A DNA stretch of 58,487 nt, filler included, from Sphacelaria rigidula (Eukaryota): assembly GCA_964200075.2 (NCBI GenBank). It is 8 parts of 8 records of this genome, joined end to end, with 100 filler letters (N's around TTAATTAATTAA, not from the genome) between each part and the next. Parts side by side here need not be neighbours in the genome. Positions count along the whole stretch, not along the records: positions 36,619 to 43,841 come from CAXNAA020015892.1; 7 more parts are not named here. One strand, 5' to 3'. Of this stretch, positions 7,225 through 57,540 are shown piece after piece. The translations under genes were made by a program, and so were the position numbers. The notes beneath the pieces are model-generated. The model ran no database searches. It saw only the letters and a list, made by a program, of their open reading frames with translations, and was not told where the DNA came from. The number at the start of each line of letters is the position of its first letter. Positions within the stretch are counted from its first letter, which is position 1.

Positions 7225-7324
7225 NNNNNNNNNNNNNNNNNNNNNNNNNNNNNNNNNNNNNNNNNNNNTTAATTAATTAANNNNNNNNNNNNNNNNNNNN
7301 NNNNNNNNNNNNNNNNNNNNNNNN
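7225..7324. other. Artificial 100-bp spacer (44N-TTAATTAATTAA-44N); identical spacers at 14549-14648, 21873-21972, 29196-29295, 36519-36618, 43842-43941, 51165-51264
   Basis: Identical six-frame-stop linker recurring at an exact 7323/7324-bp period; it splits the window into 8 independent segments. Confidence 0.98.
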
Positions 7325-14484: not shown

Positions 14485-14548
14485 GTACTCATGATCATGC
14501 ATGCCATAGTCATAAGACCATTGACCTCGCATCCCTACAAAGCCAAAA
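14485..14548 (-). repeat. 3' end of the (C)n-associated dispersed repeat (cut by spacer)
   Basis: Reverse complement TTTGTAGGGATGCGAGGTCAATGGTCTTATGACTATGGCATGCATGATCATGAGTAC matches 29296-29352. Confidence 0.85.
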
Positions 14549-15599
14549 NNNNNNNNNNNNNNNNNNNNNNNNNNNNNNNNNNNNNNNNNNNNTTAATTAA
14601 TTAANNNNNNNNNNNNNNNNNNNNNNNNNNNNNNNNNNNNNNNNNNNNACGAGGTGCGCCCCCCCCCCCCCCCTTCGGGTGGGGGGAAACACGTTGAGAC
14701 TACTCGTAGAATGTAGTGCAGCTATGCTTGGATACGTTTGCAAGGAAACGAGCATCGGCTATTACGGACAACGTACGACAGCAACGTGAACCCACCGAGA
14801 CAACAGACTCTCACCTCGGGTAAGGATCGAACCCTGTTGTGCCATAAGCACAACTTCCTGGATGATTCCTCATTCTTGTTGCCACCGGCGTTGAATCCAA
14901 ACATTTCTTGCACCTCGTTTTCCTGTTTTGGAAACCTTCTCGGTCATGAATGCAACTTGATCTTCGTCTGTGAGCCGACTCTCACGCCTATACTGAGGTT
15001 CGCAAATGCAGCCATTGGAAGAAGCTCGAAATATGTTTAAGTAATCAACCCCTTCACCACGAGGGTAGGTCATCTCTTGAATCGGCACCCCCTTCACGAG
15101 AAAAATCAATGCATGACCCAGGTGGCGGCCAGGGGGTTAGGGAACTCGAAGCAAACGTACAGAAAAAAATCCTACTATTGATAGAGTGGAACCAGCAAAG
15201 AAATGGGCAAGGAACGAGATCAGAAATCAGCAAGAGTACAGCAAGCAATCTGTACAGAGCATAACCGCGCATGTCTAGTCAACAACTTGTCTAGCGGGCG
15301 TACTACGCAGGTGATCATACCGTCCTTGCGTTGCTGTCTATCATAGGAGAGAGCTGTCACCAGCTTACGGCCTACTGCTCGAGGCGGATACATACCGCAA
15401 TATATCAACATGCACCCTTCTTTACGTGTTTCTGCTGAACCTCCGCTACTACTACGGATCATCCTCGTTAATCCAAAGGGTCAAAAAGTACACCGTACAA
15501 ACCATGCTGTTTGTCCGCAGGGCAATATTTAATTGCTGAGTATAACGTAGTTTTCCCTTGGACGGAAACGGCGTGTATGCATGAGGAGCATATGCAGAG

Positions 15600-15749
15600 A
15601 GGGGTGGGTGGGTGGGGGGGGGTGGGGGGGGGGGGGGGGCGACGAAGCAGGCGCTCTGCCCGAACACGATGCCCTCGCCCCCCCCGCACCCCTGCGGAGG
15701 AGGTGGTGAGNNNNNNNNNCGGGGGGGGGGGGGGGGGGGGGGGGGGGGT

Positions 15750-15786
<37 letters not shown>
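15600..15786. repeat. Poly-G tracts with small internal N gap
   Basis: Long G runs; 9 N at 15711-15719; the poly-Pro and poly-Gly ORFs here are artefacts. Confidence 0.9.
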
Positions 15787-21872: not shown

Positions 21873-21972
21873 NNNNNNNNNNNNNNNNNNNNNNNNNNNN
21901 NNNNNNNNNNNNNNNNTTAATTAATTAANNNNNNNNNNNNNNNNNNNNNNNNNNNNNNNNNNNNNNNNNNNN

Positions 21973-24180
21973 TACACATGGTCTACGCAACTACGGTTTG
22001 GTGTGAATCCTGCTTGCGCCTCGCTGATTTTGTCGTCATCTTCTAGCATCGTTCCTACTCAATCGTTCAGGATCCTACAGAATGTTTTCCCTACCGTGCT
22101 CAGTAGAGTTATCCCTCTGTAGTTCGCTGGGTCAGCCTTGTCTCCGTTTTTGAAAATATTGACGACTACTCCTTCTCTCCACCTCTTGGGTGTGTACTCA
22201 TTCTCCCACATCCAGTTGTACAGCATAACCACCATGGTAATCATTCCTTCTCCCCCGTACTTTAGAAAGTCATTCACTATTCCGTCTGCCCCTACTGCCT
22301 TTCTGTTCTTGAGTTTAGCTACGCACTCCTTCACTTCATCTCCATAGTAAACTCTCTCTGCAACTCTTTCGAGCCACTATCCGACCGTTTTGACGTTTGC
22401 TTCTGCCCACGCGTTGAATTCTTTTTCGAATTCCGTGTCGAACTTCGTGTTAGTTGTTGGTGTTGGCAGTTTACGGTATTTTGCTCGACTAGCACTTCTC
22501 TCTTTCCCTTCGAACTGCTGACCACTTTACCGTTCTGTGCCCGGACTGTAGCTATCGCCTTGTCCATTTTCTCTGCCTAGTTTCCCATAATCCCTTCTAT
22601 CCCTGACCACATTTGTTTCATCCTGCCGTCCAAATCTTCATTTGTTTTTTCCACTACATCTCCCCATACTCTCTTCTTTTTCTGTTGTACCATCCTTTTT
22701 ACTTCCTTCGGAGCTTTCGTATACCCCTCCCATTCTGCCGTAGTTTTAATCGGTATCCACCTTGCGTGTGCCTCTCTCCTTACTCTCATGGCCTCTGTTA
22801 CTTCCTCATCCCACCATTTTACTGCTCTGTTGCATACGATCAGTTTCCTCCCTATGACTTTAGTCGCTGTGTTCTTGACCAGCTGCTCCCCCCCTTCTAC
22901 AATCTTCGCTCCTGCCCGATTTCTTTCCATTTCGGTATCTACTGAACCTACGCGTTCCAACAGCTCGGAAAATTTCGCGCATTTTGGGCCATCTCCTCTT
23001 GGGACTCTTGCCGTGTCTCTTCCATATCTAGTTCATCGATTCTTCATTCGTACATCTTCCTTCCCCGCCTATTTCTTTTAGCTTTCATCTGTTGGCTTGC
23101 TGTCCATAGTAGGCAGTGATCTGTGGTTCCCGTGTCCTCCGCGCATACATGCACTTCCATTTCTTCACTACTTCCATGCTCTACCACTATATAGTCAAGA
23201 ACGGAGCGTTCTAATATATCGCTTTTGCATTTTCTTGTCCATGTCCATTGCCCCTTTTAGCTTTTGTGTTCTATCGCTCAGCGTCTTCATCTCGTTATGC
23301 TCGAGGAACTTGAGCATCTCTACCCCATTCGTGTTCTTCCATCTTCCCCGTATTGCTCAATGATATCATCCGGTTGACCTGCTCTTCCTACTCTTGCATG
23401 AAAATCTCCCACTAACATTACTTCTCCTTTTATATGTATGTACATCTGCTGCTATCTCTCTAAACCTCCGTTGTACATCGTTCACCCTACTCTTCGATTC
23501 TGGGGGCATGTAGATGTTACCTACGGAGAAGTCCTTCGTTCCCCGCTCTCCTGGTACCCTTAGCCATATGCTCTCGTTGAATTTCGTGTGATCACTTCTA
23601 TACTGTCACACAGATATTCCTTGACTAAGAATCCCACCCCTCCCGCTCTCCTGCTCTTGGACTTCTGCCCCTTCCGCTTTTTCCCTACACATGCGTACTC
23701 CTCACCTTTGCATCCTATTTCCGCCCCCTCTTCACCCCATGACTCTTGGATTCCTACTATATCTAGGTCGTGTTTACTCACTTGTTGTGCTATCTCCTCT
23801 CTTATGCGCTTGTCAGTGACGAACCCACACACGTTCCACGATCCTATGCTTAACTCATTCTCCGAATTATCTGCTCTCGTGTTGTCTACTGTTTTCCCAC
23901 CGTCGCTTTTACTATTTCTCTTCCTTGCTTGGTTTTTCTTCCCGTTTCTGCGTTGGTCTTTGTCTATTTTCCTCGGGCCGCTATGTTCCCTGCCCTTCCC
24001 CTTCCGGGCACGCACCTGTTCCTGCCTCTCTCCCCCTCCGTTTACCCGTGGCCTACGACCTGGGTTTGTTGTTCTATTAGCTGTGCACACTCTCCACCCT
24101 ACTCTTCTAACCCATGCCGACACCTTACTTGTCTCTGTTCTTTCCCACTCCGTGCTCGCGCTCTGTTTTGGCGTGACTTA
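21973..24180 (-). mobile_element. Degenerate LINE (non-LTR retrotransposon, APE endonuclease + N-terminal RT; RTE-like), truncated by spacer
   Basis: APE motifs IGSWNVCG, DIVGIQESW, GGVGFLVK, GNIYMPP, VMLVGDFHARVG; RT region KAVGADGI..FLKYGG..W..GVVVNIFK.GDKADPANYRGITLLSTVGKTF..QAGF; several frameshifts and stops. Confidence 0.93.
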
Positions 24181-25459: not shown

Positions 25460-26975
25460 TTTTACGTTTATGTCTGGGCTGCGCTAACCTATGCTAGGTA
25501 AAAGAAAAAGGGCGGTCAGCTTCTTCATTTCATGTCTATGTCTGGGCTGTGTTGTGGTATGTGAGAGAAAAATGGAGGGTCAGCTTCTATATTTCATGTC
25601 CATGTCCGGGCTGTGTTATGGTAGGTGATATGTAATGCAGAGTTAACTTCCTGATTTCTTGTCTCTGTCCGGGCTGTGTTATGGTAGGTGAAAGAAAAAG
25701 GAGGGTTAGCTTTCTTATTTCATGTCTATATTTGGGCTGTGTTATCATTAGTTAAATAAAAACGGAGGGTTATCGTCCCTTTTTCATGTCCATGTCCGGG
25801 CTGTGGTATGGTAGGTTTAAGGAAAAGGAGGGTGAGCTTCTCTATTTCATGTCTATGTCCGGGCTGTGTTATGGTAGGTAAGAGGAAAGGATGGTTAGCT
25901 CCTTCATGTCATGTCTGTCTGGGCTGTATAGGTTAAATATAGATCAGGGACAGCTTCTTTGTTCCATGTCTATGTCCGGGCTGTGGTATGGTGGATTAAA
26001 GAAAAGCTTCTCTATTTCATGTCCATGTCCGGGCTGTGTTATGATAGGTTCAAGGAAAAGGAAGGTCAGCTTCCCTTTTTCGTGTCTATGTCCGGGCTGT
26101 GTTATGATAGGTTTAAGGAAAAGGAAGGTCAGCTTCTCCATGCCATGTCTATGTTCGGGCTGTGTTGTGGTAGATAAGGGGAAAGGATGGTTAGCTTCTT
26201 AATTTCATGTCTGTCTGGGCTGTATTTTGGTAGGTTAAATAAAGATCATGGACAGCTTCTATATTCCACACCAATGCTACGATAGGGGTTGTACTTTTGT
26301 TCCTGGGTCTCATTTTTGTTGGAGCCCAAATATATGGGGCTTATTGTGCAACCCAAATCTGCGGGGACAGGACATGGAAATGCACACAGGGGCCTTCCTG
26401 TGAATCGGCACCAATTTCAGTCTTTTTCAAGTGAAAATGATGCCGATTCTCAGAATGATCCGTGCAACACCCCGAGAAACATTTTCGCTAAAACAATGCA
26501 GCCCTACCGTAGCATCACTCTCCATGTCCATGTCCGGGCTGTGGTATGGTGGGTTAAGGGAAAAGGAGGGTTGGCTTCTCTATTTCATGTCCATTTCCGG
26601 GCTGTGGTATGGTGGGTTAAGGGAAAAGGAGGGTTGACTTCTCTATTTCATGTCCATGTCCGGGCTGTGTTACGATAGGTTTAAGGAAAAGGACGGTTAG
26701 CTTTCCCTTTTCATGTCCATGTCCGGGCTGTGTTATGATAGGTTTAAGGAAAAGGATGGTTAGCTCCTCCATACCATGTCTATGTCCGGGCTGTGTTGTG
26801 GTAGGTTAAATGAAAGGAGGGTTAGCCTCTTCATTGCTATATCTATGTCCGGGCTGTGTTATGGTAGGTTTAAGGCAAAGGACGGTTAGCTGTCCTTTTT
26901 CATGTCCATCTCCGGGCTGTGATATGGTATGGAAGAGAAAAAAAGCTTTGGTATATCACGTCTATATCCATCTTG
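25460..26975 (+). repeat. ~63-bp minisatellite, about 20 copies
   Basis: Unit TTTCATGTCYATGTCCGGGCTGTGTTATGGTAGGTTTAAGGAAAAGGAGGGTTAGCTTCTCTA; starts at 25592, 25655, 25718, 25782, 25845... Confidence 0.95.
26269..26520. mobile_element. 252-bp MITE inserted in the 63-bp array
   Basis: Inverted repeats ATGCTACGATAGGGGTTG (from 26274) / TGCAGCCCTACCGTAGCAT (to 26515), each 5 bp inside the ends; TCCA duplicated at 26265-26268 and 26521-26524; the array unit resumes in register. Confidence 0.75.
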
Positions 26976-29195: not shown

Positions 29196-29295
29196 NNNNN
29201 NNNNNNNNNNNNNNNNNNNNNNNNNNNNNNNNNNNNNNNTTAATTAATTAANNNNNNNNNNNNNNNNNNNNNNNNNNNNNNNNNNNNNNNNNNNN

Positions 29296-29620
29296 TTTGT
29301 AGGGATGCGAGGTCAATGGTCTGATGACTATGGCAAGCATGATCATGAGTACACCCCCCCTCCCCAGTCCCTTCCCCTCGAAGGGTTGGCGCCGGGTGAC
29401 AACAACGCTGTAAAACACACCACTCACTACGTAAGTTACGCAACCAGGCAGGCGACCGTTTACTTTCATCGCTTGCATTTATCGCGGTAAGCACGAACGT
29501 TGGTCGAGTTGAATCATACTGTACGAGATGGCGAACCTCCCCTCCGCGTAAAGGGTACAAGCTACGTAGTGTATAAACGATGAAACACCCATGAGGCAGT
29601 GTACCCCATGGCTGTATCTC
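29296..29620 (+). repeat. (C)n-associated repeat: 3' end, C-rich tract, then a truncated body
   Basis: Matches 40718-40772, then 40272-40510 (GGGTTGGCG...CCACTCAC..CGTAAG...ACACCCATGAGGCAG). Confidence 0.8.
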
Positions 29621-35076: not shown

Positions 35077-35692
35077 CACACGCCGGACAACTCAACTCAG
35101 GTTACCACGAGTCAGCTCTTTTTTGCACAACTCACCAGTGAGTTATAGCAGCATCACTCAGCGGTGCCCATTTCGGCCGGGTGACTTGTACAGCAACACT
35201 CAGCGATGCAAAATCTGGCCAGGTAAGTTATAAAATATAACTCAGTTATGTGCATTCTGGCTGGGTGAATTATTAAGTATTACTAAGTAATGCATATCTC
35301 GGGCAGGTGAGTTATAAACTAAAACTCAGCCATGCGCATTCTGGCCGGGTGAGTTATAAACTATAACTCAGTTATGCATATTTTGGTCAGGTAAGTTATG
35401 CGCTACAACTCAGTTATGCACATTCTGGCCGGGTGAGTCATGAACTAAAACTCATCAATGCATATCTTGGTCAAGTGAGTCGTACAGTATAACTGAGCGG
35501 TGCGCATTCTAACCGGGTGAGTTATAAATAATAACTCATCGATGTATATCTTGGTCAAGTGCGTTAGGCAGTATAACTCAAGCGGTGCATGTTCTGGCAG
35601 GGTGAGTTATACTGTATAACTCAGCGGTGCACATTCTGACCGGGTGCGTTATAGAGCATAACTGAGGTAGCTCAGGAATTGTTCGACGTGTG
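35077..35692. mobile_element. Non-autonomous hAT-like TIR element filled with a 42-bp hairpin tandem array
   Basis: TIRs CACACGCCGGACAACT / AATTGTTCGACGTGTG (13/16); 8-bp TSD GAATCTTT (35069-76) / GAATCGTT (35693-700); about 12 units CTGGCCGGGTGAGTTATAnnnTATAACTCAGYKRTGCAYATT. Confidence 0.8.
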
Positions 35693-37525
35693 GAATCGTT
35701 GACCGTGGGCCTGAATAGACTTGACTGATGCAATGGTTAGGAGAGAACAAGTGGCTCACACCTTTGAATGGATTTCAAGCTGAAAATGAATGCTGTCTGC
35801 AATGAAGTTGGTAAAAACTTCATAGCGCTGAAAAGCTTCAATCTTTGTCATCGTTGCATGATGCCAAGCGCTATCGAGTTGTTGAGACAGGAGTGATATC
35901 CTTCGCACGTACGTACGTCGAATCCTCAATGAACTGGTGATGATTACTCACAGCAGCTTCTTCGAAGCCCTCCACGCTTTTGTTTGTTATCAAGTTCTAC
36001 TCCGCTTCTCGTGTTAGTCCTGTGTATTTAGTGCCTGCCAAAACGTGCATCTCTTCTTGTAGTCTGCCTGATGTTCGTCAACGAAATAGATTTGAAATTT
36101 CCAGGTCGGATGTAAAAAGCAAAATCAAATCAACTCTCAGGGTGACATTCTGCACGGAGATCGATTCAACTCAAAGCATGTTTTTATGATGAAGATAAAC
36201 AAGTGGCTATCGGATTCTTAAGGTGCCTGAAAAAGATATGAGAGGGAGGCTTAGGATCCGTATACCATTCAGTGAGGCCTCCTTGTCTTCATTCCCGGAG
36301 GCGGGGGGCAAGAGGGGAGGATTTTTGGGTCCAGCATACAAGGACGTTGTCCCACGAACAATTGTGAGGCCGACAACACAAAACGCCGTCGAGATGCGCT
36401 AGCTTTGCACTTACTTGGTGGTTGTTCGCGTGTTCATGCGAAAGTATCCAGGGTGACTAGTGTACAGAGTCGAGCTAGGGGACATTGTAGGAGGTTTGGT
36501 CGGTGAGGGACACTTTTGNNNNNNNNNNNNNNNNNNNNNNNNNNNNNNNNNNNNNNNNNNNNTTAATTAATTAANNNNNNNNNNNNNNNNNNNNNNNNNN
36601 NNNNNNNNNNNNNNNNNNGCTTCGCTCGGTCGCAAGTGTTTCGCGTCTTCCCTGAAAAAGATAAGTGTCACTTCAACTCCATATTTTGTATCAACCCGAT
36701 TTTCTAGGATCCACTGTTCACAGATGATTTTTCCTTGGATTGTAGAGCAGATACAGGTATCCTCAGATCCCTAATGTGACGAGCGGTGGCAAGCGAAAGA
36801 GCACAGGGTAAAAAGCCAATTTCGAAGAAATTACAAAATTAATAGTTTTTTTCATGATTTATCGGCATTTTGCTGATACCTAAAAACTGATGATTGCCGT
36901 TAACTAAAAAAAACTATTCACGTTCACGCATAACTTTTTTTATCATGTAATATTCATTGACCATATCGAATATCAAGCTTCGACTCGAAATATTGGCCGG
37001 CGAATGGGCCGATTAGTAACCGCTTCGGTAAAATTCGGAACAGTATTTTGCATGGCACTTACCGGCCCACGTTTGGTGCGTGTGTGTTGAAATTTTGTGT
37101 GGGACTTCGCTAGAGCATAATGAACCAAAATAAGTGGGTTAGGGTATTTTCGATTGCTTTTACCCCTAGTTTAGGGCGTTTTAGTATAGTAACAGTCATG
37201 TTTTCACGAGAACCCCCGAACCTCCGCCCCCCCCCCAAATTAAACTGAATGCCCATCGTTATTTTTTAGCACACCTTATCCCCGCGTGCTGCAAGGCTTG
37301 GTTTGTTTCCATCCTCCTCTCTTCAAGGAGAGTATATCCGGCTACATATTACAGATGAATGATATTCGAATCATCTAAGACGCTTAGCTCCTCAATGTGA
37401 GGGGTCACATTGTCCAAACGTTTTCAACATTTCTAAAGGAGAAACAAGCCAAATACCCCATTTTTTACCCGCCTCCGGCGGCACTCCCGCGGGCCCCCCT
37501 CATCAGCCGGGGGGGGAGCGCAGTA

Positions 37526-37867
37526 GACTTTACTACTCGGTAGTTGACGGATAATCCGGTTTGTGACAGGTGCAGTATTGGATTTTAGTGTGGACGCCTA
37601 AGTCCGGACCTTTGGAGGGGCTATGCTCCTGGCGTGCTCCTAGCGTGCGCAAAACGCGTTTTTGTCTAAATCGGCGCCTGGGGCGCCGGTTTGAGGTCTG
37701 GCAACGCACACCTCGCCTAGAAAACACGTTCTACCCCCCTTGACCGAGGGTACTCGATATGTCTTCGTTGGGATTGGGGTTAGGGTAAGTGTTATTCGAA
37801 ATGCATCAGCATCTGCACAAACCATAAATTTCCGAGAAATATCTGTCAACTACCGAGTGGTAAAGTC
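37526..37867. mobile_element. 342-bp MITE-like element with 28-bp terminal inverted repeats
   Basis: GACTTTACTACTCGGTAGTTGACGGATA / TATCTGTCAACTACCGAGTGGTAAAGTC; no clear TSD. Confidence 0.65.
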
Positions 37868-37914
37868 ACCACGGGGGGCGTCTGCGGCCCGGCGAAGCCC
37901 GATGAAATGGGAAA

Positions 37915-39570
37915 GGGTAATGCTATTTCCAAGTCGCGACTTGGAAATAGTAATGTCCACCTCCAGCTGAGATTTGACTACCCGCCCGCCTTCATCTCAT
38001 GTTCCTTGAATCGACATCACAACACTCAAAATACACTCATACAGCCCGTGGCCATCGTTCAAGCCATCGCACGGCGTAGACGGCCTCGTAGCGGTCGAGA
38101 AACGGGCCTACCGCACGGTGCCAAAAAGTACCGCCAACCGACTGGAGGTGGACATACGCTATGTCCACCACCAGCGAGTGGAATACCTGTCCGCGCTGGT
38201 CCCATGTGCCTTGTATCGACACCACAGCACCTGATATACACTCACACATTCCGTAGCCATCGTTCAAGCCATAGCACGGTGCAGACGGCCTCGTAGCGGT
38301 ACAGAAACGCGCCTGCTGCACAGAGCCAAAACATACCGCCACCCGACTGGAGGTGAACATAAGTTATGTCCAAGTCGCGAGTTGGACATGGCCTATCTTA
38401 TGTCCGCGCTAGTCCCACATGCCTTGTATCGACACCACAGCAGCTGCAATACGCTCACACATTCTAAAGCCTCCGTTCAAGCTATTGTGCGGTGCAAACG
38501 GTGTCGTAGCGGACGAGAAACGCGCCTGCTACACACATCGCCAAAAAATACCGCCAACGAACTGGAGTTGGACATCATAAGCTACTACTGTATGCCCAAG
38601 TCCGGCGAGTGCAATACCTACCCGCGTCGTCCCATGTGCCCTGTATCGACACCACAGCAGCTGCAATACACTCATGCAGTCTGTAGCCACCGTTTAAGCC
38701 ATCGTGCCGTGCGAAGGTGGAGCACGCGGGAGCAGTATCACGATGCTGTAGCCTTTGGGACTAAATATAAGTCGCGTTTTTGGCAAAAGCTATGTCCAAG
38801 TCCAGTCCGGTACCGATGTATTGTTTGGCGCTGTGTGCAGCAGGCGCGTTTCTCCTACGCTTCCAGGCCTTTTTCACCCCACGATGACTCTAACGGTGGC
38901 TACGGACTGTGTGAGCGTATTGCAGCTTCTGTGGTGTCGATGCAAGGCACGTGGGACTAGCGCGGACAGATTTTCCACTTGCTGGTGGTGGACATGAGCT
39001 ATGTCCAACTCGCGACTTGGACATAGCTTATGTCCACCTCCAATCGGGTGGCGGTATGTTTTGGCACTGTGCAGCAGGCGCATTTCTGGACCGCTAAGAG
39101 GCCGTCTGCACCGTGCGATGGCTTGAACGATGGCTACTGAATGTAACAATGTTTTCGTGAGATTGAGAGTAGAGCGCTAATTGAGAGTAGCTTCTCTCAT
39201 TTGCTTCAACTTCACTACTTTTTCATTCCGTGTGTCTTTTTTTTTTGCTTCCACCACTGGCGTGTGCTCACAGCTACACGTCGATATCCTTCTCAGGGAT
39301 ACCAAGGGTCTCAGTGGCAAGCTACTACAAAAAAGGTATTGGGCCTCGTGGAGGAGCATTCCGGGACTAAAACGGGTTATTCACGAATTGACAGCTTTTC
39401 ACTCTCAATTGCATCCTCTACTCTCAATCTCACGAAAACCTTGTTATGTGTGAGTGTATATCAGGTGCTGTGGTGTCGATACAAGGCACGGACCAGCGCG
39501 GACAGGTATTCCACTCGCTGGTGGTGGACATGAGCTATGTCCAAGTCGCGACTTGGAAATAGAATTACCC
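37915..39570. mobile_element. Mutator/foldback-like non-autonomous element with palindromic TIRs and ~190-bp internal modules in opposite orientation in each half
   Basis: TIRs GGGTAATGCTATTTCCAAGTCGCGACTTGGA / TCCAAGTCGCGACTTGGAAATAGAATTACCC; 9-bp TSD AATGGGAAA (37906-14) / AGTGGGAAA (39571-79); GGG termini plus 9-bp TSD are typical of MULEs. Confidence 0.85.
39145..39445. mobile_element. 301-bp MITE nested in the Mutator-like element
   Basis: 30-bp TIRs AACAATGTTTTCGTGAGATTGAGAGTAGAG / CTCTACTCTCAATCTCACGAAAACCTTGTT; 4-bp TSD ATGT (39141-44, 39446-49); the host module GAATGTGTGAG is restored on removal. Confidence 0.85.
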
Positions 39571-39719
39571 AGTGGGAAAACATCGATGTACTGGCCGCTG
39601 GCGAGGCCAGTTTCAACTCAAGTGACCAGAGCAACCAGTTCACAGCCCTCGTTCTTACGGGTTTTCACGCTTTTCTTCAGGTCTTTCCATAAGCATATCT
39701 TTATAATGCTGCTTTATTT

Positions 39720-40097
39720 CTGATTCACGAATGGCACCCACAGACGAAAGAGTATCAATAATAGTGAAGAAATTCACTTCTTAACCACCAAAATGTAAAC
39801 TTGAAGAAGAAAATTGTGGAGCTAAAGCAAACATTGTAGCACAAAATGTAGGACCAAAACATACAACAATACCTAAAATCGACGAAGCCAAATCAAAATC
39901 ACCAATGCGATTTACCAGCATTGCTTTAATCGCTGCTTTATTTGTTTGGATACGACTCAACCGGAAGTTAGGAAGAAGGTAAGGGCAAAGACCCACACCT
40001 TGCTAACCAACAAACATTTGGATATAATCGTCACCAGTCACGAAGATAAGCATGAAGAAGTAGATAACGAAAGATAGCTCATAAAACGAGGACGATG
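39720..40097 (-). pseudogene. nad5: NUMT: nuclear copy of an internal fragment of mitochondrial NADH dehydrogenase subunit 5
   Basis: [66 protein letters not shown]...ATMFALAPQF...*EVNFFTII..VGAI: the Nad5 signature ([29 protein letters not shown]) with one frameshift, stops and AT-rich composition. Confidence 0.92.
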
Positions 40098-40201
40098 CTT
40101 CACACCGTTTTAAACCGAATACAAGCGCACCGCAAGTGTGGCAGGTCGTCTGACACACCTATGAGCCTTTTTTGTCGTGCAATCGAATACCCCCCCCCCC
40201 C

Positions 40202-40772
40202 TTGTATCGAACCTGGTTCGGAGAGAACCCGGCGTGCTCTGTTCCGGCTTTGTAGGGGGTGGACCCCCGATGGGGTTGGCGTGGGTCGGCGATGATGCTA
40301 TATAACATGCCACTCACAGCGTAAGCTAGGCAATCAGGTTACCGATTTTGTTTTGCGCTTGCGTTGTTTTGCAATAACCGTGATGGTGGTCAAGCTAGAT
40401 CATGCTGTGGGGGGTGTGAAAAGTCCAACTCCGCGCGAAGGAGATGATCGTACTAGGTAGTGTTGAAATGGTGGGACACCCATGAGGCAGCGTATAGAAG
40501 TCGTGGCTGTCTCTGGAAGTGGCGATACTCAGAAAATGAACCAACTCATTGGAGGCTGTAATTCAAACGCAAGATAATCAGTACGCTTTTGGCCAAACAA
40601 TCTTAGCAGGAGGCAGCTTACCCTTCATGCGACTCGCCGAACACTTCACGTCGCTTCGCGCTTGGTGATTTATTGCAAGCCTGGTCTGGCGAGAACTCGG
40701 CGTGCTCCGTCCCGGCTTTGTAGGAATGCGAAGTCAATTGCCTTATGGCTATGGTAAGCATGATCATGAGTA
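40202..40772 (+). mobile_element. Near-complete ~570-bp copy of the (C)n-associated dispersed repeat with a ~47-bp internal direct repeat
   Basis: Preceded by a C run (40190-40201); CCTGGTYCGGCGARAACCCGGCGTGCTCYGTYCCGGCTTTGTAGG at ~40212 and ~40681; ends ...GATCATGAGTA. Confidence 0.8.
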
Positions 40773-40882
40773 TCGTAGGATGGGTCCACAGTTGTGCGAG
40801 ACGGTGGCACAAGCGTCTCGCCAGTGTTCAGGTCCGATTTTGACAGGTATGGGATGTTTCTGTATCGTGTACTGCATCGCAG

Positions 40883-41008
40883 GGCAAGTACAGTGAGGCG
40901 GAGCCACTGTACGAGCGGTGCCAGGCGATTCAGGAGACGGTTCTCGGCCCGGAGCACCCGTATTTAGCCACCACGCTCCATAATCGTGCCGGGTTGTTGA
41001 AAGCTCAG
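40883..41008 (+). CDS. TPR cassette exon 1 (42 aa, phase 0)
   Basis: CAG|GKYSEAEPLYERCQAIQETVLGPEHPYLATTLHNRAGLLKAQ|GT. Confidence 0.9.
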
Positions 41009-41301
41009 GTGGGAGTCCATGGAATATCCTCGTTGTCGTGCGTGGACGTGTGGACGACGTTGTTGATGTGTTGGGTGGACTTGTGGTCTTGTGGACCAAC
41101 ATGGAGTGACGGGGTGCGTGCGGAGAGGCCGACGCGTTGTACCTGTGAGCTTTCGAGACGGGGCACGATATCGTTGGCCCTGTACACACAGCGTTGACGG
41201 GCTGCACAGCTGTGCGATATAGGGGCGTAAGTGCCTCGCCAGCGATGTAGGTCCGAGGTTGACGGGTATAGCATGCTTCTGTGTCGTACCCTCCATTGCA
41301 G

Positions 41302-41427
41302 GGCAAGTACAGTGAGGCGGAGGCACTGTACGAGTGGTGCCAGGCAATTCAGGAGAAGGTTCTCGGTCCGATGCACCAGTATTTGGCCACCACGCTCGGG
41401 AGCCGTGCAGGGTTATTACAAGCTCAG
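41302..41427 (+). CDS. TPR cassette exon 2
   Basis: CAG|GKYSEAEALYEWCQAIQEKVLGPMHQYLATTLGSRAGLLQAQ|GT. Confidence 0.9.
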
Positions 41428-41731
41428 GTGGGAGCCCATGGAACTTTCTCGTAGTCGTGCGTTGACGTGTGCGTTGACGTGTGGACGACGTTGTTGATGT
41501 GGTTGGGTGGTCTTGTGATTTTGTGGGCCAACGTCGCGTGACGGGGTGCGTACGGAGAGGCCAAGCCGTTGTACCTGTGAGCCGTCGAGATGGGGCACAA
41601 ATTCTTGGCTCGGTACACACAGCGTTGATGGGCTGGACTTTTGTGCGGGACGATGGCGCGAGCGTCTCGCCAGCGGCGTAGGTCGGACTTAGACGGAATA
41701 AGATATTTCTGTGTCGTGTACTGCATTGCAG

Positions 41732-41857
41732 GGCAGGTACAGAGAAGCAGAGCGACTGTACGAGCGGTGCCAGGCGGTGCAGGAGACGGTTCTCGGCCCG
41801 GAGCACCCAAGCTTGGCTATCACGCTCGGGAACCGTGCGAGGTTGTTAGAAGCCCAG
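41732..41857 (+). CDS. TPR cassette exon 3
   Basis: CAG|GRYREAERLYERCQAVQETVLGPEHPSLAITLGNRARLLEAQ|GT. Confidence 0.9.
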
Positions 41858-42134
41858 GTGAGGGTCGATGGAACTTCGGCTTGGTCGTGTGTCCACGTGT
41901 GGATGACCTCGTGGAGGTGGTTGGTTGGTCTTGCGGGTCTTGTGGGTCAACATTGAGTGACCGGGTGCGTACGGAGAAGTCAAGCCGTTGCATCTGTGAC
42001 GTGTCGAGATGGGACAGTATTCTTGGCTCTCTACGCACAGCATTGTCCGCCTGCGGAGCTGGCGGGGACGGTGCCGCTCGCGTCTCGCCAGCATTGTACG
42101 TCCGACGTCGGCAGCGTCGCGTTCTGCGTTGCAG

Positions 42135-42260
42135 GGCAAATACAGTGAGGCTGAGTCACTGTACGAGCGGTGCCAGGCAATCAAGGAGAAGGTTCTCGGC
42201 CCAGAACATCCGAGCTTCGCCGCAACACTCCACAACCGTGCAGGGTTGTTGGAAGCTCAG
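42135..42260 (+). CDS. TPR cassette exon 4
   Basis: CAG|GKYSEAESLYERCQAIKEKVLGPEHPSFAATLHNRAGLLEAQ|GT. Confidence 0.9.
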
Positions 42261-42553
42261 GTGAGAGGCGTTTGAACTTCCTCGTAGTCGTGTGTGCACG
42301 TGTGGGCGACGTTGTTGATGTGATGGAGTGATCTTGCGATCTTGTACACCAAGATGGGGTGACGGGGTGCGTGCGGAGGAGCCAAGTCGTTGTACCTGTG
42401 AGCCGTATAGATTGGGCAAAGTATTCTTGGTCCGGTACACACAGCGTTGACGGGCTGGACAGCTGTGCGAAACGATGGCGCAAGTATCTCACCAGCGTTG
42501 TAGGTCCGATCTGGGCAGACATGAAATGTGTGGAATTGTGCACTGCATCGCAG

Positions 42554-42679
42554 GGCAAGTACAGTGAGGCGGAGCCACTGTACGAGCAGTGCCAGGCAAT
42601 TCAGGAGAAGGTTCTTGGCTCGGAGCACCCGTATGTGGCCACGACGCTCCACAACCGTGCGGGGTTATTGGAATCTCAG
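42554..42679 (+). CDS. TPR cassette exon 5
   Basis: CAG|GKYSEAEPLYEQCQAIQEKVLGSEHPYVATTLHNRAGLLESQ|GT. Confidence 0.9.
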
Positions 42680-42970
42680 GTGAGAGCCGTTGGACCACCC
42701 TCGTAGTCGTGTGTGCACGTGTGGACGACGTTTTCCATTTTGGGGGTCTTGCGGACTTGTGGACCAACGTGGAGTGGCGGGGTGCGTGTGGAGAGGCCAA
42801 ATCGTGGTCGCTGTGAGCCGCCGAGGTGGGGCACAGTATCCTCGGCCCGGTACACACACCGAGTTGACGGACTGTAAACCTGTACGGGACGGTGGCATAA
42901 GAGTCACGTCAGCGTTGTAGCTTCGACTTGAGCAGACATGGAATGTGTCGCATTGTGCACTGCATCGCAG

Positions 42971-43096
42971 GGCAAGTACAATAAGGCGGAGCCACTGTAC
43001 GAGCGGTGCCAGGCAATTCAAGAGAAGGTTCTTGGCCCGGAGCACCCCTATGTGGCCACGACGCTCCACAACCGTGCGGGGTTGTTGCAAGCTCAG
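42971..43096 (+). CDS. TPR cassette exon 6
   Basis: CAG|GKYNKAEPLYERCQAIQEKVLGPEHPYVATTLHNRAGLLQAQ|GT. Confidence 0.9.
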
Positions 43097-43397
43097 GTGA
43101 GAGCCGATAGAACTTCCTCGTGGTCGTGTGTTGACGTGTGGATGTTATTGATGTGGTACTGTAGGATGGTCTTGTAGTCTTGTGGTCCTGTGGGCCAACG
43201 TGGAGTGACAGGGTGCGTAGAGAAAGGCCGAGCCGTTGTACCTTTGACCTGTCGGGATGGGGCACCGTGTTTTTGGCCCTGTACCCACGGTGTTGATGAG
43301 CTGTACAACTGTGCGAGACGGTGACGCGAGCGGTACGTCCGCGGTGTAGGTCTGACGTCGACAGAGATGATATCCTGCGCGATGTACGGCATCGCAG

Positions 43398-43523
43398 GGC
43401 AAGTACGGTGAGGCGGAGCCACTGTACGAGCGGTGCCAGGCGATTCAAGAGAAGGTTCTCGGCCAGGAGCACCCGTATTTGGCCACCACTCTCCACAACC
43501 GTGCGGGGTTGTTGCAAGCTCAG
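43398..43523 (+). CDS. TPR cassette exon 7
   Basis: CAG|GKYGEAEPLYERCQAIQEKVLGQEHPYLATTLHNRAGLLQAQ|GT. Confidence 0.9.
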
Positions 43524-44189
43524 GTGGGAGCCCATGGAACTTCATCGCAGTCGGGTGTTGACGTATGGACGAGGTTGTTGATGTGGTTAGGTGGTCGTTT
43601 GGTCTTGTGGGCCAACGTTGAGTGATGGGGTGCGTGTGTAGAGGCCAAGCCGTTTCACTTGTGAGGCATCGAGATAACAGAAAAGTCTATAAAATGAGGT
43701 TCATCAATGAAATGAGGTTCGAGCCCAAAACAGTACTTTCTCCACCCTTTCAGCGATGGTGCCCGATGACTTTTTTGTCGGCCTAATGCCCCTCGATCGC
43801 GTAGATACTTTTTCAGCGCATACTACCGACTCTGTGAGCTTNNNNNNNNNNNNNNNNNNNNNNNNNNNNNNNNNNNNNNNNNNNNTTAATTAATTAANNN
43901 NNNNNNNNNNNNNNNNNNNNNNNNNNNNNNNNNNNNNNNNNAGTCAACTTATTACACTAAAACCAAGTAATTTCCTGACGAATCATTATTTGTCCCAACC
44001 GTGAAAAGATGCAAGTTCGGCCAAACACGAAACTGTGACCTACGGGAAACGCAAAGGTGCTCTGGAACGGTCTCAGCGAGTAGAGCAAGTTATCCCAAGG
44101 TGTCAACATCCGCCTAGCACTTTTTTCGGGCGAAAAACGACGGAGCAGGGCCAAAAATGCACTTTTCAACAGCCTAAATTTTTTTTATA

Positions 44190-50800: not shown

Positions 50801-52993
50801 GCAACATGAAACACCACACAATGACAACGATGAAGTCATCTTGAATCGTGGGCCGTGTCCAAGGCCGTGCAGATGCAGCAGCAACCTGAGCGCAAATGGG
50901 GACTGCAACACCAACCCAGGCCACCGCAACCATACCGCGGGCATAGCGACACTCAAAGCGAACGTTGGGTACACTACCCAGTAAACCAATAGGCAGAGCA
51001 CCGCTTGTGAGACTGCCTTCGATATCATCCTGCCTCCGCACGGTGCTCCACCGCGGCTGCGGGCACCAGAAGACCGGCAAAACCATGTGTGACGGAACAT
51101 ATACTAAAATCAAGTTTGTACTAGGAGCTGGGCCAGCCTAGAGGCTGCATGAACGTTTGCAGGCNNNNNNNNNNNNNNNNNNNNNNNNNNNNNNNNNNNN
51201 NNNNNNNNTTAATTAATTAANNNNNNNNNNNNNNNNNNNNNNNNNNNNNNNNNNNNNNNNNNNNAGTAGTATCAGGAATGTGCCATCCACATCGACACAA
51301 GAAAAGATGCTAGTGCTGTCTGTGTCGGCGATGCACGCCTCCTCAAAGAATCGACATGTAACACAGTTCATATTTTCGTGTTCGTCTAACTAGGCCCTAA
51401 ATGCTACTACCGTAATAGTTTTGTATGCCACAGCAATGGCACTAAAGTTATGTACTCAGCTAAGCTAAAGAGGAGAAATAGGTGTACTGAAATTCTAGGA
51501 GTACACCATGAAAGCGCCGCGATTCTTGGGGAACCATTACGGGGGCCGAGTTGCCAACTCGACCTGTTGATCCGTAGACGAGTCACGATAGATGTCATAT
51601 CACGAAAAACGCACTCCGAACACACTACAAGCGCTTGTTACTGACGGGTTTAAAGGCGTCCTTCCGCCCCTGACAAAAAAAAAAAGCAATACAAAAAAAA
51701 TCCTAGACGCAGCAACCGAAATACCAACGGAAGAATATCACGACCGTGGACACCAAAACGAAATTACAAAAAACGTGATGTTGCGTCGCCCGGCGGAATG
51801 ATACATCCACCGAACAGTCATCAACAGCAACAGCAACGGTAACAGCAACAACAGTGATGTAGGTGAAAAACGGCTCATGAAAGCAGCAGCAACGATCTTC
51901 TCGCGCACAGATGGAACAGCGTGGGAAAAACGTTGAGCTCTCCAACTTTCAACACCAAACACACACCACGAAACAAAGATAGCGGAACAAACTAGAATGC
52001 GCAGACTTTCTTTCGGGACGCAAGCAACTCCCTAGAACTCGGCAGATACGAAGTCAACTGCGAGTCACCGTTTCAATATCGCCCCATACTATTAATGCAC
52101 CCTTCCCGCGTTGTTTCCCCCATGTGTTGGCTAGAATACGACGCCCACGGGGGACACGGAAAAGATTGTTGACCTCAGGATGCGCAGCATACAGCCGCTC
52201 GAGACTACGCGGACGCGCAACAGATAGATAGATAGATACGCCTACCCGAGATTATTGTATCCAACACAACACACGGGAAGGCATGCACCGACCGACCCCT
52301 TCGCGATATGCGCTCAGAGGAAAAAATAAAACAAAGACAAAAGTTGAAATCTCGGAACGAACACAGACGACGGCAAAACAAGGCGTCCGTGCGTACTGTA
52401 CAGTCAGCCCAGTCCAATCCAGTTCAGAATATACACCGCGTACGACACACATACAGCATTCGGTATCCCGCAGATGAGAAAAAAAGGAAAAACGGTAACG
52501 AAGAAGAATCAAACACAGCTCACGACCGCGTGAAGACACACAGCACAAGCGATCTACTCCTTGCCAATGGTACACCTTCACAGAGATACATCGCACAACT
52601 AGAAGACAAGACGGGCACACGAGACAATCCCCATCAACCGAGCAGCTCACCAAGATAGTACACGCAGTTTGTTGCCAGCGCGCACGCTTTTGTAACCTTC
52701 ACGTCCACCATGATTGTTCTCTCCACGTTCAGCGCACAGGCACACAATCGATTTTCACACAATTTTCACTTTCCACGGTTGCGCCCGCTCCAGCACACTC
52801 TAGGTACACACAGGCAGACACTTGACTGCATCCGGAATCACACCCGTCTATTTCCAGTATTATCTTCCGTCTGGCCGACCCCCCGAGCACAAGCCAATGA
52901 CGGAAAAAAGCACAACATGTGGTTTTTATTCGTCACAAACCAGAAGATCTTTCGCATCTGCCCCCCTCGTAACACTCAGCGCTGCCCTCCCCC

Positions 52994-55083
52994 CTAAGAT
53001 TCCGTCTGTTCTCTATCACTGCCTGCCTGTCCATCATACGAGCATCGTCCAGCATCCCGTTTACCCCCTGTTTCCTGAGAAATTTCGAAGAATCGTTCGG
53101 CAGACTTCTTCGCGGAATATTCCGAAACCGCCGCCGCTCTTGCCTTCTCTGCCTTCTTCTTATCCGCGGCGAGCGCGGCGGCTGCCGCCGCCGCCCGCGA
53201 ACGAGCTTTAGACAACACGGCGAGTGGGGGATGGCTCACCGCCGGCACCTGCGTGCGAGCTTCGTTATCTGCCAACTTCCGCTTCGTTGAAGTCGTTGAC
53301 ATTCCCGCCGCACCGCTACTGCTACGGACGGCGGCAACGGCGGCGATGGGTCGATCAAGTGGGGCAGTCACCGGCAGGGCTCCCGTGGCGCCGCCGCCGC
53401 GGTGTACCATGGAGGTAGTAGGGAAGGTACTCGTCGCCATAGTCGGAGGTGTAAACGGCGACCTTAACGCCAAAGTTGGGAGGTCTACAGGTTCAGAATG
53501 GTTGCCGGACAATGTGTTGGTTGGGGCGCCGACCGCAGCGGTTGTAGGCAGTTCCTTTGCGGCTGGAGCAGAGCACGACAGGTCATCATGCTGCTGCTGC
53601 CGCTGCTGCGGTTGGGAGAAGGGGGAGGTTTCTCCCCAGGGCGACGCCGGCACAACTGCGATTGGGGTCGTCCCTACTCTCGGCCGTTTCACCGCCGGCT
53701 TGGTGCCATCCGCAAAGGGCGTTGATGCTTCAGCCGCGGCGGCGGCCGCGGCTGATGGTGAAACTGTTTCGGAGAATGGGCACACGCTGTTTGTGAAGGT
53801 ATGGGCACCGTTAGGAGAAGGAGTGACTACAGAACATGAGAGCGGGCCGGATGCAGTCGGCGTCGAGCCCAACGAAGGCTGAGACGAGACAGCCGCTGAC
53901 GGCGTACGAAACGCTGAAGGGTTGAGGACGTGGGCCACTGCGGAACTACTGCGGCGGGAAAAAGGTGATGGCTGTCCCATCCACTCTCTCTGTTGTCGCT
54001 GAGCCATGTCGCTCCCAACCGCGGGTGATTCTGGAGGACAACTTGTAGGAAATGCAGACGCAGATGCGCTAGCCGGCGCCAACTCGTTGTGACCTTCCTC
54101 GACATCAATATCTTGTGTGTCACTTCTTCTCCCAGTCATCTCTGCTTCCTGCGGGCAAACGGCCGGTCGATTGCTGCTCAACTGCCCCGATCTAGTGTTA
54201 GCAGCCGCCACAGGTAACGACGTAATCGACTGCCGTGAAGCAGCCGTTGGCTGCGCCACACTCAATAGTCCTGGTGCCGAATCCATCGCTGTGGGGGCCA
54301 CGGCAGGAGCTGCTGCGACGTCCCTCACCTGGTGCACATCGGCAATTGCCGCCGCCTCGGCCGCGGAAGTTGCCGTTGCCACGGGAAGCTCACCCTTCGA
54401 AAATAAACTCCCGCCGCAACCAGTACCCGCCGTTGTGCTAACCACGGTGTCGAGGCGGGGAACGGAGCGACTGCCCCGGGAGAGCTCGACGCCAGTGTCA
54501 CCATCATCCGCATCATCCATTGCGGTGTCCTCGTCAACACCAGTTGCGGTAGTACTGGGCCACCCCGACGCACCTGGAATTTTCGACGCACCTGCTGCTC
54601 TCTTGTCCTGAGGTGCTGCGTCACCGTAGCGGGAGGCCTTCCTCGAGGCAAGAGATTTTCCCAGGAACACTCGATGACGCTCGTTTGGGTCTTCGCGGCA
54701 GGTGCCGCCTGTGGCTTGCATTTCATCAGTTGCGACCGCCGACGCCGCCGCCCGTGCCGCGGCGGCCGCCCTCACAGCCGCCGCCGCTTTCGCCGCAACA
54801 GTGGCGGCGCCCGTTGTCGGGGCGGAGGGTATCGATCCTGTTGGCAATCCCGACGACGCCATCATGTCGGTGTTACCGAAATCGTCGCTGTCCTCGTTTT
54901 CTCCGTCGCCAGATTCCTCGGCCGAGCTGGACGATTTTTTAAGGTACATGAGGAGACCCTTGGCGTTGAGGACATCCGGCGTGGTTCCCTCGATCATGGT
55001 GCATTTTTTGCTGTCTCCCGCCGCCTTGGCCTCGGAGAGGAGGAGGGCCTTTTCCTTGTGGAAACTGTTGATCTCGTTGCGTC
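52994..55083 (-). CDS. Myb transcription factor, probable last exon (low-complexity C-terminus)
   Basis: Acceptor TTTAACAG|GA in phase 1 matches the upstream donor; the frame is open for ~696 codons to TAG at 52994. Confidence 0.75.
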
Positions 55084-55320
55084 CTGTTAAATCGTTATTT
55101 TTCGTCGTTATTTTTGGTCACCAAATTGTTTTACTGTCATGATTTTTCATCATGGGCAGAGGACGACAGTGAGGCAAATCGGGAGCGATGCAGCGATGGC
55201 GACAATAGGTGGTGCCCCTGGCCAACACCAAACCTCGAAATCGTCATATTCGCTACACCAGCACAGCACGATAGAGAACACAATCAACCCTGCCGCGAGA
55301 GTTGGGGGAGGGGGGGGGGG

Positions 55321-55620: not shown

Positions 55621-55854
55621 TGGGGGGGGCGGGGGGGCGGGGGGCATGGAAGTGAGGGAATTCTGTGCATATATCACGCCATCAGGAAGGTTCACGTGCT
55701 TGCACTATGCAGACAATTCAGTCGTCTCGGGAAGCAGAGGAGTGGGCATCTGACTCGACAATACGGCCCGTGAAATACAATAGCAGCCGAATACACAAAA
55801 GAAGCCCTGGATCTCCCTACTAAAACAGCTTTTCTCCCTCATTCTCCCGCTCAC

Positions 55855-57047
55855 CGAAAGACGTCAAGCCGGGGATGCTCCCCCCAAACAAGGCCTGAGC
55901 AGACATGAGTTCCGCCGTCGCGCCGCCTCTGGCTGCAGCCGCAGCAGCCGCAGCAGCCGCAGCACCATTGGCATCATCATTATCTCGCCCAGCAGGAGGC
56001 TTGGTGGGGCCTGGAGCTTTGTCGCGAGCGCCGGCGTTTTCTCCAGCTCTCCTCTCGTCCCTACGACCACCGCCGTTTCCGCTGCCGACGGTCGTCCCAC
56101 TAACTCCCGTCAGGCACGTCGCGGCACTATTTGCGGCAGCCTTCGCTTGGATGAGGGTTTTTAACGGTCTTCCGGCACCCAGCGGTCGTCCATTGTTACA
56201 CCGCTCTCCACTACTGCCCAATGGTTTCCGTGTGTTCGAGGAGCCTCTATTCATGGTGGACTGTGCCATTAACCCGCCGCGCCTGTTTCCTTCGGTAGTG
56301 CCGTGACTCTCACCGAGGTTCTTGCCGCCGCCATTTTCGTCGGCGGGATTGCAAGAGGTGACCGCAGGCGCCGCTCCCGCCCTCAGCCGCTCACCAGGCC
56401 CCGACTGCTTCTTGTTCTTACCGGGGAAGGCTGCAGTGATCGGTGGCGCTGCTGCGACGCAAGTTGTGACATTGTCGTTGCTAGCACTACCGCTGACGCT
56501 GAAAACACTGTCAGCAGTGGGAGAAAAGTCCGCCACAGATGTAGGCGAGGAGGTTCTAGCGCTCCCTTCAGCCGCGGCGGCAACGGAGCCAATCGTTATC
56601 ACGCTGTTGCCCACACTGCTACCGCTACTGCTTCCGCTGCGCTTGTAACCCTTGACATTGTTGTTGGCGCTGCTACTGCTGCTGCTGCTGCTACTGCTAA
56701 CAGGTTGGGCCATGTTTTTACCGCCGTGTCTTCTTCTCGTACCGGTGCTGTCCTTGCTCTTTGAAGACAGTGACTGTGCGGCGCCGCCCCCCATCGCATC
56801 GACCGCCGGTTGGGTTGGATCCGCGCCGTATTCGCGCGCGTCGTTATTCCCCTGCGAAAAGCTGCCAGGCTTGGTCACGTGCCGCGGGACGGCGCCCGCA
56901 CCGGAGACGGCGGCAGAGCCAGCGCCAGTGGTTCCCGTGTTGGGTGCAACGCCCTTCGCTGTTCCTGCTGCGGCAATCTCTGCCTCGTCGTGACACCACA
57001 CTCGTCGGTCAGTCGAGGAAGCGGTCATGTTCAGTTGTCGCGACAAG
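55855..57047 (-). CDS. Myb transcription factor, internal exon
   Basis: Acceptor TTTTTTCTTGCCGGGTTCAG|C gives KR-R-LSRQLNM in phase with the Myb exon; donor TTC G|GTGAGC; open Ser/Ala/Gly-rich frame. Confidence 0.8.
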
Positions 57048-57540
57048 CTGAACCCGGCAAGAAAAAAAATCAAGACGCGACATTTTGCGGCAGCACCAGC
57101 GGCGGCGGCAGGCGGGGGGACGACGATGCGTGAATAGCTCGACACGATTTGATCTGCACTGTATAGTACACTGACTGGCCGACACCGCACGCGAATAAAT
57201 CAAGACAACGGTCTCCCGCACGTCCGAGTGGGGAGAGGCCGTACGCAACGTACAGTGGGTATTGCGCGACATCGGTATCATGATCCAAAGGGGCGAGTGA
57301 CGGATACATACCCCGTCCCCACCCGTCAAGCACGCCTGATGGTCTCCTTTTCGGCCGAACACAGAATAACAAACGAGAAATGCAGAAGCACGCCGAATGA
57401 TACATACTACTGCACTAGTAAGCCGTGTCATCAATCAACACTCGGACACATGAAAGAAACAGATGGCTCTCGCTGTTGGCGGTGCACGACCCACCGTTGT
57501 CAGCAAAACCCACATGAAAACGCAACACATCCGCGCTCAC

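Follow-up and report, generated by a model that had tools for sequence, protein, structure and literature searches.

Does a tandem array of short exons in Sphacelaria rigidula (GenBank assembly GCA_964200075.2) encode the repeat domain of an immune receptor, and is it a site at which such a receptor is diversified? The array lies in a window (the whole stretch of DNA analysed here) of 58,487 bases. An earlier note on this DNA described seven exons, each encoding one tetratricopeptide repeat (TPR), and took them for a cassette module of a diversifying immune receptor, working by unequal crossing-over, gene conversion, alternative splicing, or possibly somatic rearrangement. In our reading, which we hold with somewhat better than even confidence, seven or more exons stand in tandem in the germline here and make up the repeat domain of a gene that belongs to the brown-algal NB-ARC-TPR family. 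In brown algae, a multicellular lineage in its own right, the NB-ARC-TPR and ROCO families are the main immune-receptor candidates, and the locus provides a clean example that is easy to assay, its seven cassettes being intact.

The window was joined from eight pieces, each about 7.2 kb long. Between one piece and the next stand 44 N's, a 12-base linker with stops in all frames, and another 44 N's. The true flank of the array is only the piece at positions 36619-43841 (CAXNAA020015892.1), which adds 4.26 kb on the upstream side of the exons and 0.32 kb on the downstream side; the adjoining pieces are not its neighbours.

A tandem array of seven one-repeat exons

Tandem Repeats Finder placed an array of 6.9 units of about 419 bp on the plus strand at 40787..43675 (period 419, 74% matches, score 2530), and its units align with one another. 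The pattern cag|GGCA..(126 nt)..CAG|gt has exactly seven matches in the window. These are exon 1 (40883..41008), exon 2 (41302..41427), exon 3 (41732..41857), exon 4 (42135..42260), exon 5 (42554..42679), exon 6 (42971..43096), and exon 7 (43398..43523), all on the plus strand; after exon 7 come a GT donor and 152 nt that resemble an intron. Each exon is 126 nt long, encodes 42 amino acid residues, and is in phase 0-0, so that exon borders are codon borders. Frame 0 is open in all seven exons, and stop codons occur in frame 1 in two of them and in frame 2 in six. The chance that seven independent 42-codon frames would be open is about 7.5e-6 at this base composition; the copies are homologous and hence not independent.

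The intervening introns are 293, 304, 277, 293, 291, and 301 nt long, which gives a period of 403-430 bp. When units 1-6 were aligned, each of the 12 distinct indel events lay in the introns, and the 126 exon columns had none (P = 0.018 under a uniform distribution). Across the seven exons, 23 of the 42 residue columns are invariant and 19 are variable. The pattern search and frame check thus bear out the exon anatomy given in the earlier note, the indels are confined to the introns as it stated, and any subset of the exons preserves the frame because all are 126 nt long and in phase 0-0. Its list of recurrently changed residues on a conserved scaffold (positions 4, 8, 27, 28, 30, 33, and 40) also holds, all of them being variable, and positions 12, 19, and 23 recur as well.

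The array contains at least seven units, which if spliced in order would encode at least 294 residues. An nhmmer search found no further copy of the exon anywhere in the window, and an exact 48-mer search of metagenome contigs gave no match.

The coding strand of the array is G-rich, unlike most of the window (GC skew +0.17 to +0.18, G 35% versus C 23%, at 40001-44000). Long antisense open frames run across the array, probably because of this composition. None of the eight antisense and read-through open reading frames (ORFs) across the array matched a Pfam family.

Exon borders relative to the TPR fold

Scanned singly, six of the seven exons passed the cut-offs of both Pfam profiles used, TPR_12 and TPR_10. 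Exon 1 scored 35.4 bits with TPR_12 and 33.0 bits with TPR_10, exon 3 scored 37.4 bits with TPR_12, and exon 4 scored 30.5 and 32.4 bits, respectively. Exon 2, the most degenerate (W12, M24, Q26), failed both, with 21.8 bits for TPR_12 (cut-off 30.1) and 17.0 bits for TPR_10. The best relatives of solved structure are the TPR domains of the kinesin light chains KLC1 and KLC2 (E = 6e-27 to 4e-23).

Residues 1-27 of the exon align to positions 16-42 of the TPR_10 profile. In a predicted model of the Ectocarpus homologue P0046, a 42-residue unit (198-239) contains helices at 200-218 and 224-238. This is a single-sequence model of poor overall quality (mean pLDDT 51), of which we used residues ~150-270; pLDDT is 82-92 over residues 200-260. 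On this model, each exon encodes a G-K-Y turn, helix B (residues 3-21), a G-P-E-H-P loop (22-26; G-P-x-H-P), and helix A of the next TPR (27-41). The exon thus comprises helix B, a linker, and the next helix A, which puts every junction in the invariant Q|G-K-Y turn. Since the borders lie in this turn between helices A and B, and since all exons are 126 nt long and in phase 0-0, any two of them joined give a legitimate TPR, which explains the structural compatibility of any exon pair.

The variable positions are 4, 5, 8, 12, 16, 17, and 19 in helix B, 23, 24, and 26 in the loop, and 27, 28, 30, 33, 34, 37, 40, and 41 in helix A. D'Andrea and Regan are said to have described, in 2003, that helix A of the TPR lines a concave binding groove.

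The exon consensus fits the TPR signature GKYxEA[E/D]PL[Y/F]..Gx[D/E]xxx[V/I]AxxLxNxAxLLxxQ with three deviations. The middle run of x is 11 residues long here and 8 as printed in PMC3341825, where the motif totals 39 residues and not 42; five of the seven exons have L or F at position 28; and three of the seven have a residue other than P at position 8.

Dead exons in the introns

Each unit also carries the relic of a second, dead TPR exon on the plus strand. In intron 1 it lies at 41113..41196, and the homologous relics of the other units start at about 41545, 41964, 42366, 42781, 43212, and 43629, i.e., 230-243 nt after the start of each live exon. The relics were recognised by tblastn, by hidden Markov models (HMMs), and in the aligned translation. 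When the live exons were masked, the introns of the array received 24 of the 25 best high-scoring segment pairs (HSPs) of 20 homologues, on the plus strand and at corresponding places in the units (lowest E = 2.9e-4), and tblastn against the intron consensus gave E = 9e-6 at best for the relic. An HMM built from 186 repeats of the homologues found the relic in five of the seven units, and an extended HMM found it in six; neither HMM found a minus-strand relic in the array. In sequence, the relic is like another subtype of repeat in the homologues, which has D-P-L-Y-L-R-A-I-E-I-G instead of E-P-L-Y-E-R-C-Q-A-I-Q.

In the aligned translation, all seven relics have the same TGA codon where the homologues carry R, and six of the seven share a second stop. 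The stop common to all relics indicates that the relic was already dead when the 419-bp unit was amplified, and that the duplication unit consisted of a live exon and a dead exon. A 419-bp unit of this composition would thus have been duplicated in tandem to give the array. The regular, co-amplified alternation of live and dead exons adds a detail to the inactivated exons that have been published for the introns of Ectocarpus genes (PMC3341825), and shows in array evolution that a dead exon can be carried along in the duplication unit.

The relic is clear at the protein level alone. At the nucleotide level, local alignment of the exon consensus with the intron consensus was not significant (score 18, versus 16.8 +/- 2.3 for shuffled sequence), and nhmmer gave only E = 0.065. 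We also considered a relic that includes the upstream helix A, by which the intron would be a contiguous TPR-coding stretch; this was unsupported, the extended HMM aligning only from model position 13-17.

Selection and age of the cassettes

The mean p-distance is 0.17 for the exons and 0.26 for the introns (15 pairs), the Jukes-Cantor distance of the introns being 0.32. By the method of Nei and Gojobori, the 21 exon pairs have a mean dS of 0.46 and a mean dN of 0.118 (ratio 0.26). In three non-overlapping pairs, 25.5 of 86.2 synonymous sites and 30.5 of 291.8 nonsynonymous sites differ (Fisher p = 2.4e-5), and identity by codon position is 0.86, 0.90, and 0.73. Seven sequences of 42 codons give no power to site models, so these values speak to overall dN/dS only. 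Together, a dS of 0.46 and a dN/dS of 0.26 indicate that the cassettes are old duplicates under purifying selection, neither recently homogenised nor rapidly diversifying.

Variability by position tracks that of the family as a whole (186 repeats from 20 brown-algal homologues; Spearman rho = 0.48, p = 0.0014); the variable positions of the cassettes are simply the variable surface positions of the family. Positions 11, 13, 14, and 31, which are highly variable in the family, are fixed in the array, and these subfamily-specific residues fit the local duplication of one cassette type. After the duplication, the copies would have diverged for a long time, with the scaffold kept by purifying selection and substitutions tolerated mainly at surface positions of both helices.

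The nearest neighbour of a unit varies by segment, being 1-7 and 5-6 for the exons, and 1-2 and 2-7 for the downstream introns. A homoplasy (PHI-type) permutation test for recombination among the units fell short of significance (p = 0.11 and 0.106). Along the introns, the splice sites and the relic were the only conserved blocks in the profile.

Evidence from sequencing reads

Run X1 has contigs that together span 40934-43437 without a mismatch. Run X4, from a different study, covers 40934-41211, 41603-41807, 41788-42544, and 42637-43013; the order is unchanged there, and none of these segments has more than one difference. The joints seen in DNA runs have only 21-30 matching letters on the shorter side, mostly with extra letters between, and therefore look like repeat artefacts.

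One contig of run X6, which is only guessed to be RNA, joins 42679|42971 (depth 6, with 40 letters on its shorter side). The joint, the only splice-like one seen, removes precisely the 291 nt of intron 5 with GT..AG borders and links the 3' end of exon 5 to exon 6, and we take it as weak evidence of ordinary consecutive splicing of these two exons. A contig of this run covers 42984-43083 in exon 6 with no mismatch. Some parts of the stretch have no contig cover in X6 and X7, which speaks neither for nor against splicing. Exon-skipping joints were not seen in the contigs, which drop rare variants.

Relatives and flanks of the array

In a search with a profile of the seven exons against longer proteins, the first matches were an Ectocarpus 'NB-ARC and TPR repeat-containing protein', proteins from Scytosiphon, Sphacelaria, and Pylaiella, and unnamed EukProt entries (120 of 6741 matches listed). 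NB-ARC (PF00931) was present in 16 of the 22 listed matches with at least 74% identity to exon 1, and all the named ones are brown-algal. The exon anatomy, the Pfam matches, and these nearest listed proteins agree in making the locus a one-repeat-per-exon TPR array of the brown-algal type, as the earlier note had it. Its label of 'immune receptor' fared less well: it draws support from homology only, through these 16 proteins, and no NB-ARC exon was found in the piece.

None of the proteins among the matches listed contains the exact cassettes; the best foreign match shares 33-37 of 42 residues, and the cassettes share 33-38 of 42 within the array. Exons 3 and 4 are closer to a foreign protein than to any other exon of the array (34 versus 33 and 37 versus 35 of 42, respectively). 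A search for related loci with the exon alignment gave 80 loci of only 55-74% identity, which are likely unrelated TPR genes.

The array ends in mid-intron on both sides, and high-copy repeats lie at most 15 bp from each end. On the 5' side, a dispersed repeat at 40190..40772, to which no strand was assigned, is 82-91% identical to sequences in other pieces of the window; the summed contig depth is 3e5-6e5 in the bins at 40600-40817, versus tens to hundreds within the array. On the 3' side, a second and different repeat (43676..43841, likewise without strand) truncates unit 7 inside its relic and continues to the end of the piece at 43841. It has a depth of 4e5-1.3e6 in runs X1 and X4, loose contig ends stand at 43686, and no copy of it was found elsewhere in the window. 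The 4.2 kb upstream of the array within the piece consist of repeats and a nad5-like fragment.

Part of the 5'-adjoining repeat (40714-40772) recurs at the end of the second piece (14486-14544) and at the start of the fifth (29296-29351), with 88% identity. The nad5-like fragment is a 73-residue open frame on the minus strand at 39784-40002, with similarity to PF00361, the family of NADH dehydrogenase/antiporter membrane subunits (E = 1.9e-4; 21.2 bits versus a cut-off of 21.5). It may be a bit of mitochondrial DNA, nad5-like, that was inserted 0.9 kb upstream of the array. Farther upstream, 3.3 copies of a 205-bp tandem repeat occupy 37998-38702, with an inverted copy at 38792-39144 (74-81% identity); the ORFs there have no Pfam match.

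Alternative readings of the locus

Several observations weigh against the array being the repeat domain of an NB-ARC-TPR gene. Six of the 22 closest listed proteins have no PF00931. With 20 brown-algal homologues as tblastn queries, 0 of 1265 HSPs in the window lay outside 40700-43700, and none of the 60 ORFs scanned in the window matched NB-ARC, the true flank being only 4.2 kb upstream and 0.3 kb downstream. As the piece holds no NB-ARC exon, the head domain, if any, lies beyond 36619-43841; and because high-copy repeats adjoin both ends, the array could be an isolated fragment. Run X1 is possibly the sample behind the assembly, in which case only X4 is independent. Runs X6 and X7 also contain exact intronic contigs (41926-42114 and 41513-41696; depth 3-4), which indicates that DNA or pre-mRNA is present too, and the joint of exons 5 and 6 could come from a paralogue at least 95% alike.

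It is therefore possible, though we rather doubt it, that the locus is an orphan or lacks NB-ARC, being either a fragment of a TPR domain that was severed by insertions of transposable elements and is slowly decaying, or a TPR-only gene. If so, the open frames and the low dN/dS would reflect past, not present, selection. The repeats at both ends, the lack of NB-ARC in the window and in some of the closest proteins, and the failure of exon 2 to reach either Pfam cut-off are in line with this, and Zambounis et al. (PMC3341825) describe other repetitive TPR loci beside NB-ARC genes as well as high pseudogene rates. However, all seven exons have retained their frame, length, and both splice sites despite 12 indels in the introns, and exons 5 and 6 are joined as if spliced in one run. 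Brown-algal introns can, moreover, contain repeats, so that a distant NB-ARC exon is possible.

A second alternative, which we consider very improbable, is that the array is a bank of cassettes bounded by transposable elements, in which headless but intact TPR exons serve as donors to NB-ARC-TPR genes through gene conversion or ectopic recombination. The cassettes are indeed intact and without a visible head domain, the foreign resemblance of exons 3 and 4 speaks for it, and the idea of a reservoir has been voiced for LRR-only loci (PMC11378527). The homoplasy test was not significant, however, and the subfamily-specific residues at 11, 13, 14, and 31 fit local duplication instead. If the bank were real, selection would keep the frames open for donation, the 419-bp unit would be a module of recombination, and the locus would be a stramenopile germline analogue of the chicken pseudo-V or lamprey VLR cassette banks.

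Least probable of all is a module that rearranges somatically or is spliced combinatorially: symmetric phase-0 exons and homologous introns make the mechanism feasible, and it was proposed in PMC3341825, but the DNA contigs of two studies keep the germline order (with the limit that contigs drop rare variants), the sole DNA joints are artefact-like, exon skipping was not seen among the contigs, the introns are conserved in no block other than the splice sites and the relic, and somatic recombinant loci were not reported as of Teng et al. 2024 (PMC11378527). The active or somatic diversification proposed in the earlier note thus finds no support in old cassettes with a dN/dS of 0.26, a recombination test at p = 0.11, and an order unchanged where the second study covers it.

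Under the reading we prefer, that of the repeat domain of an NB-ARC-TPR gene, the exons would be spliced in order into a solenoid of 42-residue TPRs of the kinesin light chain type, which is regarded as the part of a STAND NTPase that binds the ligand. The NB-ARC exon would lie outside the piece, and the product may act as a receptor. Exons may be gained or lost by unequal crossing-over in the homologous introns of about 290 nt, or omitted by exon skipping, and in either case the frame and the fold would be preserved. What the array suggests of the evolution of such loci is that the cassettes are ancient and constrained, not rapidly homogenised.

Other features of the window

The linkers between the pieces are at 7225-7324, 14549-14648, 21873-21972, 29196-29295, 36519-36618, 43842-43941, and 51165-51264. 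The region at 22001-24000 has an extreme strand asymmetry (GC skew -0.35, AT skew -0.40), and contains an ORF on the minus strand (23563-24177) with an endonuclease/exonuclease/phosphatase domain (PF03372, E = 1.1e-5), which may belong to a retroelement of the long interspersed nuclear element type. Two open frames on the minus strand, 52997-55117 (707 residues) and 55823-57199 (459 residues), are rich in Ala, Ser, and Thr and match no Pfam family; these are coding exons of low complexity or else frames that are open by chance in GC-rich DNA. Minisatellite arrays occupy 5118-5669, 25490-26929, and 35138-35663 (with periods of 41-42, 63, and 42/168 among them), and long poly-G runs are present at 33-63, 15601-15639, and 15721-15786. 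A tRNA scan found none, and an Rfam scan of the piece that contains the array gave a single sub-threshold match to a microRNA.

Comparison with known systems

The one-repeat-per-exon architecture and the hypothesis of a shuffling receptor, both invoked in the earlier note, were already known, their publication dating from 2011 (PMC3341825). Zambounis et al. 2012 (PMC3341825) reported that 13 of 24 Ectocarpus NB-ARC-TPR genes have TPR exons of 42 amino acids and phase-0 exon pairs, with introns whose inactivated TPR exons all lie on the coding strand, and with signs of positive selection; they proposed that exons are shuffled and may even recombine somatically. Teng et al. 2024 (PMC11378527) described somatic recombinants as unreported and regarded alternative splicing as simpler for NB-TPR genes, citing Teng et al. 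2023, and according to a 2024 preprint these families are expanded in brown algae. The locus opens no new question; exon shuffling, alternative splicing, and somatic recombination have all been put forward before.

The lamprey VLR and vertebrate V(D)J systems resemble the array only in the idea of recombinable modular cassettes; in the array we saw nothing to suggest somatic joining, nor did we see signal sequences beside the cassettes or an incomplete germline gene. The kinesin light chains (PDB 5oj8, 3nf1, and 3zfw, among others) have the same 42-residue TPR period and the motifs G-K-Y..E-A-E-P-L and L-G-x-x-H-P, but they are motor adaptors with six TPRs after a coiled coil, and the likeness is, to judge from the sequences, one of fold and repeat type and not of orthology. 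The brown-algal LRR-ROCO genes, with LRR exons of 72 nt, share the one repeat per phase-0 exon, the dead repeats in introns, and the hypothesis of shuffling or splicing (PMC3341825; PMC11378527). They differ in having the LRR fold, and in that intronic LRR exons lie on the non-coding strand too, whereas the relics of the array are on the plus strand.

The closest parallel is with the Ectocarpus NB-ARC-TPR genes. The array differs from these in that its 7.2-kb piece contains no NB-ARC exon, in that selection is purifying overall, and in the perfectly regular alternation of live and dead exons with one stop common to the dead ones. Its exon, moreover, encodes helix B, a linker, and the next helix A, and not 'a 34-residue TPR plus linker' in register. 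The two have in common phase-0 exons of 126 nt and 42 amino acids and dead exons on the coding strand of the introns, the best protein matches of the array are NB-ARC-TPR proteins of this kind, and the C-terminal part of the published TPR signature is identical, residue for residue, to the array. In the structural features that we tested, the locus is a member of the brown-algal class of repetitive TPR exons.

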